A DNA stretch of 64,000 bases, taken from the NCBI RefSeq assembly GCF_003334315.1, contig NZ_QOWR01000022.1. The stretch is one strand, 5' to 3'. Positions 10,427 through 12,364 of this stretch are shown here, in pieces. How positions within the stretch are numbered: the stretch's first letter is position 1; each line of letters opens with the position of its first letter. This DNA is from Escherichia coli (lineage in GTDB: Bacteria; Pseudomonadota; Gammaproteobacteria; Enterobacterales; Enterobacteriaceae). The notes under the pieces were generated by a model. The model was not told where the DNA came from. It saw only the letters and a program-made list of their open reading frames with translations, and ran no database searches. A program made the position numbers and the translations under genes.

Positions 10427-12016
10427 ATGACGCAAACTCTGTTAGCGATTGAAAATTTGTCGGTGGGTTTTCGCCATCAGCAAACCGTACGTACAGTAGT
10501 CAATGATGTTTCACTACAGATTGAGGCTGGCGAAACGCTGGCGCTGGTGGGTGAGTCAGGTTCAGGCAAAAGCGTTACCGCGCTGTCAATTTTACGCCTG
10601 CTCCCTTCCCCGCCGGTTGAATATCTCTCCGGCGATATTCGTTTTCATGGCGAATCGCTGCTTCACGCCAGCGATCAAACGTTGCGCGGTGTACGCGGTA
10701 ATAAGATCGCCATGATTTTTCAGGAACCGATGGTGTCGTTAAATCCATTGCATACCCTGGAAAAACAGCTTTATGAAGTGCTTTCACTCCACCGCGGGAT
10801 GCGTCGGGAAGCGGCTCGTGGCGAAATTCTTAACTGCCTTGATCGCGTTGGTATCCGCCAGGCGGCAAAACGGCTGACAGATTATCCGCATCAGCTCTCC
10901 GGCGGCGAACGGCAGCGGGTGATGATTGCGATGGCGCTGTTAACGCGACCGGAATTATTAATTGCCGATGAACCGACCACCGCACTGGACGTCTCTGTCC
11001 AGGCGCAGATTTTACAGCTGTTGCGCGAACTGCAAGGCGAGCTGAATATGGGCATGCTGTTTATTACTCATAACCTCAGCATTGTCAGAAAACTGGCCCA
11101 CCGCGTGGCGGTAATGCAAAACGGTCGCTGTGTCGAGCAAAATTACGCCGCTACGCTATTTGCATCACCCACTCATCCTTACACACAAAAGCTACTCAAC
11201 AGTGAACCGTCAGGCGATCCAGTGCCGTTGCCAGAACCTGCCTCAACGTTGCTGGATGTTGAACAGCTTCAGGTTGCCTTCCCCATTCGCAAAGGGATTT
11301 TGAAGCGCATTGTGGATCATAATGTGGTGGTGAAAAACATCAGTTTTACGCTACGAGCGGGTGAAACACTGGGTTTAGTGGGCGAGTCCGGTTCCGGGAA
11401 AAGTACGACGGGACTGGCGCTGCTGCGACTGATTAATTCTCAGGGCAGCATCATCTTTGACGGTCAGCCACTGCAAAATTTAAATCGCCGCCAGCTGTTA
11501 CCTATTCGTCATCGCATTCAGGTGGTATTTCAGGATCCAAACTCCTCGCTCAACCCACGACTCAACGTTTTGCAGATTATTGAGGAAGGCTTACGGGTTC
11601 ACCAGCCGACGCTTTCTGCCGCACAACGCGAACAACAAGTGATAGCCGTGATGCATGAAGTGGGATTAGATCCTGAAACACGCCACCGTTATCCGGCGGA
11701 GTTCTCTGGTGGTCAGCGACAACGTATTGCGATTGCCAGGGCATTAATTCTTAAGCCCTCGCTGATCATACTTGATGAACCGACATCATCACTCGACAAA
11801 ACGGTACAGGCGCAAATATTGACGCTATTGAAATCATTGCAACAAAAGCATCAACTGGCCTATTTGTTTATCAGCCACGATTTGCACGTTGTCCGCGCGT
11901 TATGTCATCAGGTTATCATACTGCGACAAGGGGAAGTAGTGGAACAAGGACCGTGCGCGCGCGTGTTTGCCACACCGCAGCAGGAGTATACGCGTCAGCT
12001 ACTGGCGTTGAGCTGA
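10427..12016 (+). CDS. yejF: ABC transporter ATP-binding protein with two fused ATPase domains
   Basis: ORF 10379-12016; ATG at 10427 gives 529 aa; two Walker A motifs (GESGSGKS) and two LSGG signatures. Confidence 0.9.
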   Translation: MTQTLLAIENLSVGFRHQQTVRTVVNDVSLQIEAGETLALVGESGSGKSVTALSILRLLPSPPVEYLSGDIRFHGESLLHASDQTLRGVRGNKIAMIFQEPMVSLNPLHTLEKQLYEVLSLHRGMRREAARGEILNCLDRVGIRQAAKRLTDYPHQLSGGERQRVMIAMALLTRPELLIADEPTTALDVSVQAQILQLLRELQGELNMGMLFITHNLSIVRKLAHRVAVMQNGRCVEQNYAATLFASPTHPYTQKLLNSEPSGDPVPLPEPASTLLDVEQLQVAFPIRKGILKRIVDHNVVVKNISFTLRAGETLGLVGESGSGKSTTGLALLRLINSQGSIIFDGQPLQNLNRRQLLPIRHRIQVVFQDPNSSLNPRLNVLQIIEEGLRVHQPTLSAAQREQQVIAVMHEVGLDPETRHRYPAEFSGGQRQRIAIARALILKPSLIILDEPTSSLDKTVQAQILTLLKSLQQKHQLAYLFISHDLHVVRALCHQVIILRQGEVVEQGPCARVFATPQQEYTRQLLALS

Positions 12017-12019
12017 CGC

Positions 12020-12364
12020 TTAAAAAGGATTGTAGTTTGAAAAGGGTTCGGCAATTGCCACACCAAAATTTTTCAATCGGCATGTTGCAGCAAACTCGTC
12101 CTGGCGATTTACAAACAGGCACGGCTCACCTTCACACTCCAGCACCGAACATGGAACTTCGATGTCGCTTAACGCCTGGCTTAGTTTATACATCACCGAC
12201 CATGCATTATCACCATCCGGGCTAAGCAATTTAAGCGCCACCAGGCTGTTGTCACCGCACGGTCCATTTTGCGGAATCGGTTCAACCTTCGAACCTGCGA
12301 AACCAGCAGACCAGCGATAGTTCTGCGGCAGTCGATGGACGATTGAGAGTTGTAATGAAGTCAC
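12020..12364 (-). CDS. yejG: Uncharacterised protein YejG
   Basis: 114-aa ORF convergent with yejF; the two stop codons are 3 bp apart. Confidence 0.8.

Follow-up and report, generated by a model that had tools for sequence, protein, structure and literature searches.

A conserved stem-loop embedding the yejF stop codon at the convergent yejF-yejG junction of Escherichia coli

Where the convergent genes yejF and yejG of Escherichia (E.) coli meet, the last codons of yejF, its stop codon and a spacer of three base pairs together form an RNA stem-loop, and comparison of the sequence across Enterobacteriaceae argues that this stem is under purifying selection. The reading that we consider probable is that yejF and yejG are a compact convergent pair in which read-through transcription is handled by Rho and 3' trimming, and in which the selected stem-loop serves as a boundary or stability element. 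The layout itself is that of the standard K-12 reference annotation and is already known, and the overlap between yejF and yejG is already recorded in published tables of Term-seq ends and of excludons. Tightly spaced convergent genes that depend on Rho and RNases are familiar as a class, and the junction as a whole is ordinary and holds no surprise for a specialist. What is added here is a small, clean case of RNA structure residing in the last codons, the stop codon and the 3-bp spacer. The conservation of this stop-embedded hairpin is a small new detail of modest weight, of which no description was found in an incomplete search of the literature.

Layout and spacing of the junction

Positions given below are those of the window, i.e., the entire 64-kb stretch of E. 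coli DNA that was analysed. The yejF coding sequence (10427-12016, plus strand) specifies the ATPase of a microcin C / peptide ABC importer, and yejG (12020-12364, minus strand) a 114-residue protein of the YejG family (PF13989), for which the list of open reading frames gives a GTG start; both features are supported by the sequence, the open reading frames and RefSeq. Reading of the sequence places the yejF stop codon, TGA, at 12014-12016 and the yejG stop codon, TAA (read as TTA on the plus strand), at 12020-12022. The two are separated by the spacer CGC (12017-12019), and the plus strand across the junction reads ...GCG TTG AGC TGA CGC TTA AAA AGG... The 3-bp distance between the stop codons, which was the starting observation of the first-pass annotation, is borne out by the sequence, the open reading frames and the RefSeq annotation, where the "microcin C ABC transporter ATP-binding protein" ends three bases before the "YejG family protein". 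Over 1.3 kb the sequence matches that of E. coli K-12 MG1655 at 100% identity, the junction region is found in one copy per genome (5426/5426 complete E. coli genomes), and the 60-nt junction is unchanged in 5385 of these 5426.

Other convergent gaps in the window measure 73, 102, 138, 199, 210 and 714 bp. When yejG loci were retrieved from 80 Enterobacteriaceae species, the convergent yejF-yejG arrangement was found in 79, with a gap of exactly 3 bp in 72 of these 79; the remaining seven species have gaps of 1, 1, 2, 2, 5, 6 and 23 bp. The 3-bp layout is not due to chance. Conservation of the spacer length alone is nevertheless weak evidence of selection because three base pairs are a small target for insertions and deletions, and conservation of the spacer sequence, described below, is the stronger evidence. 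A coding overlap created by a shifted yejG stop codon was ruled out, as the C-terminus (...NPF*) is conserved; the length variants of YejG differ at the N-terminus or internally.

Transcript ends and transcript overlap

Transcription of yejG starts at two σ70 sites validated by primer extension, which presumably are placed about 37 and 157 nt ahead of the start codon, allowing for the offset between genome versions. The ends of the transcripts were taken from a curated Term-seq list, which gives each 3' end together with its flanking sequence, 50 nt on the upstream and 10 nt on the downstream side (Adams et al. 2021, PMC7815308). Genome coordinates were converted to those of the window by subtraction of 2265873, a value that was derived from the listed sequences and tested on the proL, rsuA and bcr entries, the rsuA and bcr entries being in agreement with the window. 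The minus strand has a strong 3' end, labelled "antisense yejF", at genome position 2277685, i.e., at 11812 in the window, 208 nt beyond the yejG stop codon and inside yejF (PMC7815308). Its scores are 212916 and 168450, which from the position of the row in the file we assign to LB at OD 0.4 and 2.0, respectively; scores of mepS-internal ends are about 10^4 (PMC7815308). The yejG 3' untranslated region defined by this end (11812-12019, minus strand) is antisense throughout to the last ~205 nt of yejF. Folding predicts a stem-loop at 11818-11855, on the minus strand only and with two G-U pairs, which sits 6 nt upstream of the mapped end and probably either halts exonucleases or serves as a weak terminator. 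This hairpin is intact in four Escherichia sequences only, and for this reason the length of the yejG 3' untranslated region is not a conserved feature.

Farther into yejF, about 620 nt past the yejG stop codon, the same study reports a bicyclomycin-sensitive Rho region on the minus strand (genome 2277275, window 11402; score 3.76, p = 2.2e-10), where the upstream/downstream coverage is 128/27 in untreated and 343/272 in bicyclomycin-treated samples (PMC7815308). The region coincides with a C-rich, G-poor stretch of the minus-strand RNA at 11303-11442 (C/G 1.6-2.4). On the plus strand, the RNA that follows the yejF stop codon and is antisense to yejG is similarly C-rich and G-poor, i.e., rut-like in composition (12054-12310; C/G 1.4-1.9). 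This composition suggests that 12054-12310 may be a Rho loading region for the yejABEF transcript, which would then be terminated by Rho within the antisense-yejG segment. Of the hallmarks of Rho-dependent termination, C-rich, G-poor RNA is found on both strands and increased read-through upon bicyclomycin treatment on the minus strand only; no plus-strand Rho region near yejG is reported in the bicyclomycin data (PMC7815308). The first mapped plus-strand 3' end downstream of yejF is a weak Term-seq end at 12694 (PMC7815308), which follows the bcr terminator hairpin at 12663-12682.

The first-pass annotation had proposed that each transcript must extend into the coding region of the opposite gene, and had named transcript ends located exactly at the stop codons as the observation that would speak against it. 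Such ends were not seen: the curated list contains no Term-seq 3' end within 50 nt of either stop codon and no "primary" end for yejG or yejF (PMC7815308). The proposal stands for yejG, the transcript of which ends 208 nt inside yejF, and the pair has been catalogued as overlapping; read-through from yejF into yejG is what we infer for the plus strand. A consensus scan of 10300-14000 for terminators and promoters returned no terminator-like site near the junction (11500-12700), and its counts matched those of shuffled sequences. Because there is no intergenic terminator, the transcripts of yejF and yejG overlap.

The overlap was already known, because yejF-yejG is listed by ExcludonFinder among 165 convergent excludons of MG1655, the criterion being overlap in at least 50% of 58 RNA-seq sets (NAR 2025, PMC12288877). 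As in other convergent excludons, the two genes are tail-to-tail neighbours on opposite strands and their transcription units overlap in vivo according to published data. They differ in spacing, i.e., the mean intergenic distance of convergent excludons in E. coli is 95 nt (PMC12288877), compared to 3 bp here. The pair is consequently described as a convergent excludon-type arrangement with a putative regulatory effect. A published p19 study captured one RNase III-type duplex of 22 bp and low abundance within yejF, at 11268-11289, about 730 nt upstream of the yejF stop codon and outside the mapped 208-nt overlap; p19-type duplexes arise from most E. coli genes. The supplements of the SMRT-Cappable-seq and TERMITe studies make no mention of yejF or yejG.

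Structure and conservation of the junction stem-loop

The junction hairpin (11992-12019) is a perfect 9-bp inverted repeat with a 10-nt loop, composed of the arms GCGTCAGCT (11992-12000) and AGCTGACGC (12011-12019). Its 5' arm consists of the third base of a Thr codon, an Arg codon (CGT), a Gln codon (CAG) and the first two bases of a Leu codon (CT-), while the 3' arm consists of a Ser codon (AGC), the TGA stop codon and the CGC spacer, which supplies the outer three pairs of the stem. Because the repeat is perfect, the hairpin folds on both strands; six of the nine pairs are G-C, and the predicted stability is -15 to -17 kcal/mol on either strand. No other 36-nt fold within about 850 nt is as stable on either strand, and an 81-nt minus-strand segment that includes the hairpin folds at -25 kcal/mol (z = -3.3). 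The first-pass annotation had stated that there is no room for terminators between the genes, which is true of the 3-bp gap itself but overlooked this conserved 9-bp stem-loop at the end of yejF.

Perfect repeats of at least 9 bp occur at about 17 loci in the window, the junction included, where shuffled sequences give about two hits. Some at least of the other loci resemble ordinary terminators. The sequence 3' of the junction hairpin is UUAAAAAGG on the plus strand and GUAUACUCC on the minus strand, i.e., there is no U-tract on either side. A search of 8000-16000 against the Rfam families (E <= 1) returned no real match; a match to ST7-AS2_1, a human lncRNA model, was dismissed as a chance hit (21.7 bits compared to a gathering score of 80).

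Conservation of the stem was assessed in an alignment of 73 junctions with a 3-bp gap, corresponding to 71 distinct rows. In these 71 rows 94.8% of the stem cells form standard pairs, compared to 91.0% in column shuffles (0/500 reach the observed value) and 20-59% in slid registers; the aligned species are phylogenetically related, so that the shuffle statistics overstate independence and are not to be read as independent probabilities. At the outer end of the stem the first base of the spacer pairs with the fourfold degenerate third position of the Thr codon, and this pair covaries (GC in 29 rows, CG in 17, AU in 6 and UG in 2, with a mismatch in 17/71). RNAalifold independently recovers six of the nine stem pairs. 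The stem is present in most of the species that have the 3-bp gap, and it is also retained at gaps of 5, 6 and 23 bp; the loop sequence varies freely. The stem is preserved slightly better on the yejG-sense RNA, to which the figure of 94.8% refers, than on the yejF-sense RNA (91.2%), the deviating pairs in the yejG sense being G-U rather than A·C.

Within the stem, synonymous sites are nearly frozen: the Gln codon is CAG in 70/73 sequences, the Ser codon AGC in 65/67, the yejF stop codon TGA in 70/73 and the Leu codon CTN in 69/73, and the Arg codon is only CGT or CGC. The third base of the Leu codon, which lies outside the stem, is free (G 31, A 16, T 13, C 9). At Leu codons adjoining the stem TTR is used in 22-37% of the sequences, whereas the stem Leu avoids it. 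The yejG stop codon alternates between TGA (54) and TAA (17), in contrast to that of yejF. The spacer is NCG in 63/71 rows. The constraint was compared to that expected from the protein sequence by means of a simulation in which the last nine amino acids of yejF were kept for each species, synonymous codons were drawn from the species' own yejF usage, and the stop codon and spacer were randomised. The mean folding energy is -12.3 kcal/mol (observed) versus -5.5 kcal/mol (simulated) in the yejF sense and -14.8 versus -6.5 kcal/mol in the yejG sense; 65% and 87% of the sequences, respectively, reach p < 0.05. Because neighbouring synonymous sites are saturated, the stem appears to be maintained by selection.

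Possible roles of the stem-loop

Among the known classes of terminators, the junction hairpin shares with canonical bidirectional intrinsic terminators, such as that of bcr, a GC-rich perfect repeat at the end of a gene, but differs from these in having no U-tract on either strand; it is not a canonical intrinsic terminator for that reason. The curated Term-seq list contains no mapped 3' end 7-9 nt past the stem on either strand (PMC7815308), and in LB the main transcript ends of E. coli are not located at this hairpin. Another correspondence is with termination of 3' untranslated or antisense RNA by Rho, after which exonucleases trim the RNA back to a stem-loop that protects it (described in PMC7815308 with reference to Peters et al. 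2012 and Dar and Sorek 2018). Here, too, a bicyclomycin-sensitive region of C-rich, G-poor RNA lies antisense within yejF, and the stable yejG end is found 6 nt after a stem-loop that is upstream of the Rho region. The difference is that the conserved junction hairpin is not the observed end, and that the hairpin used instead (11818-11855) is confined to Escherichia.

The proposed explanation is as follows. The abundant yejG mRNA passes the junction and acquires a 3' untranslated region of about 208 nt that is antisense to the end of yejF; according to the published data this transcript is ended by Rho farther in and by trimming from the 3' end back to a local stem-loop. The weakly expressed yejABEF transcript would continue into antisense-yejG RNA that is rich in C, and would be expected to be terminated there by Rho. 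The junction stem-loop is most likely a boundary or stability element, which would act as a barrier to 3' exonucleases and possibly as a pause site, and which may keep both coding regions intact once the read-through transcripts have been trimmed. In a more far-reaching form of the boundary reading, the hairpin is a dedicated, Enterobacteriaceae-wide element, kept mainly on the yejG-sense RNA, that sets how far each transcript invades the opposite gene and thereby tunes a trade-off between the YejABEF importer and YejG. Such an element could be a non-canonical site of termination or pausing, or a hairpin within the coding sequence that stabilises the mRNA. We regard this more far-reaching form as rather doubtful.

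The same observations can be viewed from the perspective of the overlap or of the convergent arrangement. It is possible, albeit clearly less probable than the explanation outlined above, that the pair is subject to true excludon regulation, in line with the antisense interference suggested in the first-pass annotation, in which the 3' regions pair and RNase III cleavage or polymerase interference makes high yejG expression lower YejABEF, or the reverse. The documented overlap, in which the yejG 3' untranslated region can pair without a mismatch over about 205 nt of yejF, is consistent with such regulation, as are the RNase III-type duplex captured within yejF, the abundance of the yejG-sense 3' end and the synteny in 79/80 species. 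However, the p19 duplex is weak and is located outside the mapped overlap, and the length of this overlap is not conserved, the hairpin at its end being limited to Escherichia. Polymerase collision offers a different role for the junction hairpin, i.e., that of a non-canonical bidirectional terminator at which pausing together with head-on and trailing collisions would release transcripts at the boundary. Overlapping collision-driven bidirectional terminators between convergent genes were reportedly described by Ju, Li and Liu in 2019. A later preprint defines a class of stem-loops that lie between convergent genes and look like neither Rho-dependent nor intrinsic terminators (Wang et al. 2022, 10.1101/2022.10.23.513370). 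The junction stem-loop is similar in that it is conserved, is placed exactly between the convergent genes, forms on both strands and has no intrinsic features such as a U-tract, but the stem differs in being located inside the yejF coding sequence and in including the stop codon. Furthermore, the curated Term-seq ends do not include one at this stem, the dominant yejG end being found 208 nt beyond it, and the downstream minus-strand termination is sensitive to Rho. The collision model also applies best to highly expressed pairs, and no plus-strand 3' end of yejABEF has been mapped close to the junction. Overall, a collision terminator appears unlikely.

Two further readings assign no role to the RNA. 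The inverted repeat may be a functionless by-product of the C-terminal amino acids and codon bias, with a spacing that persists because it is a tiny mutational target. Indeed, the amino acids and the stop codon leave little freedom at three of the nine pairs, CGT/CGC and CAG are preferred codons, and some nearby synonymous sites are equally frozen (e.g., Gln at -35 is CAG in 73/73). On the other hand, the folds in the codon-preserving simulation are much weaker, the spacer, although non-coding, retains the form NCG and is paired to the Arg codon, and the outer pair covaries with the fourfold degenerate Thr site. The difference in behaviour between the two stop codons and the avoidance of TTR at the stem Leu point in the same direction. 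A mere by-product of coding is rejected on the basis of the simulation and of the conservation of spacer and stop codon, and we consider it improbable that the repeat is functionless. Alternatively, the 28-bp palindrome could be a DNA site for a dimeric protein, i.e., a roadblock or a regulator, as its perfect dyad symmetry, with the core TCAGCT-N10-AGCTGA conserved at the DNA level, would allow. The cells that deviate from Watson-Crick pairing are, however, mostly G-U on the yejG-sense strand, which indicates RNA pairing, and stability is better kept on that strand, both in the fraction of significant folds (87% vs 65%) and in the fraction of paired cells (94.8% vs 91.2%). Moreover, the loop is free to vary and there is no known factor. 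A protein-binding site is therefore the least probable of the readings considered, and we deem it very improbable.

With the stem-loop most likely a boundary or stability element, the junction could become a test case of how convergent genes are insulated where there is no intergenic space. It may also bear on the expression of the microcin C / peptide importer beside yejG, a gene linked to aminoglycoside tolerance; overexpression of YejG leads to higher aminoglycoside resistance.

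Structure and stop-codon context at the 3' ends of yejF and yejG

The TGA stop codon of yejF is followed by C (window 12014-12017) in 67 of the 71 distinct sequences. Among the stop contexts of E. coli, UGA-C is the leakiest; at this junction, pairing in the stem of the junction hairpin, i.e., the inverted repeat formed by the last yejF codons, the stop codon and the spacer to yejG, accounts for the C. Were yejF read through, the next in-frame TGA would be encountered only 8 residues past the stop. On yejG-sense RNA a second stable stem-loop (minus strand, 11948-11983; -14.6 kcal/mol) is found directly downstream of the junction hairpin and is followed by 6 nt and then UUGUUCC. 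Two of its pairs are kept in the RNAalifold consensus, and this element may contribute to the structure of the yejG mRNA 3' end.

Of the 80 species with yejG loci that were compared, only Intestinirhabdus alba (locus L035, 3343-3560) lacks a convergent yejF downstream of yejG. At this locus the junction hairpin is absent, and the DNA downstream of the yejG stop is GC-rich and unrelated.

RNA ends and duplexes on either side of yejG

A p19-captured RNase III-type duplex of 22 bp maps to 11268-11289, inside yejF, whose stop codon lies about 730 nt farther downstream. This position is past the called Rho region, i.e., the published bicyclomycin-sensitive region on the minus strand within yejF. 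The duplex implies that low-level antisense RNA extends to, or begins at, this depth in yejF.

At the opposite side of yejG, the bcr terminator hairpin (12663-12682) has the core GGAAGC-CUUUUA-GCUUCC, with a folding energy of -23 kcal/mol and z = -5.1. A weak Term-seq 3' end is found on the plus strand at 12694, on the basis of which the terminator seems to work bidirectionally. The RNA that ends here could originate either from yejABEF read-through spanning the whole of yejG or from initiation in the yejG-bcr spacer (12365-12696, 332 bp). The same spacer harbors two sigma70 start sites of yejG, validated by primer extension (dPeak paper). An enriched interval in an Hfq co-immunoprecipitation study overlaps an earlier-reported sRNA, named there "5' UTR-yejG", which suggests that the leader of yejG may act as a regulatory RNA.

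YejG variants and pseudogenes

The E. coli YejG protein variants (P0012, P0018, P0063 and P0041; yejG at 12020-12364) all share the same C-terminus. Some carry internal 8-residue tandem duplications (SLVALKLL; GSKV...), while in others the N-terminal ~25 residues differ, as if frameshifted with an upstream start. Variant P0063 is found on 357 contigs.

Elsewhere in the window, the yejO autotransporter gene (~20500-24300; NZ_CP032667.1 1593194-1596984) is a pseudogene that an IS5 element interrupts. At the far end lies another pseudogene, of the alpha-2-macroglobulin family, which contains an internal stop; both assignments follow the RefSeq annotation of the K-12 MG1655 record NZ_CP032667.1.
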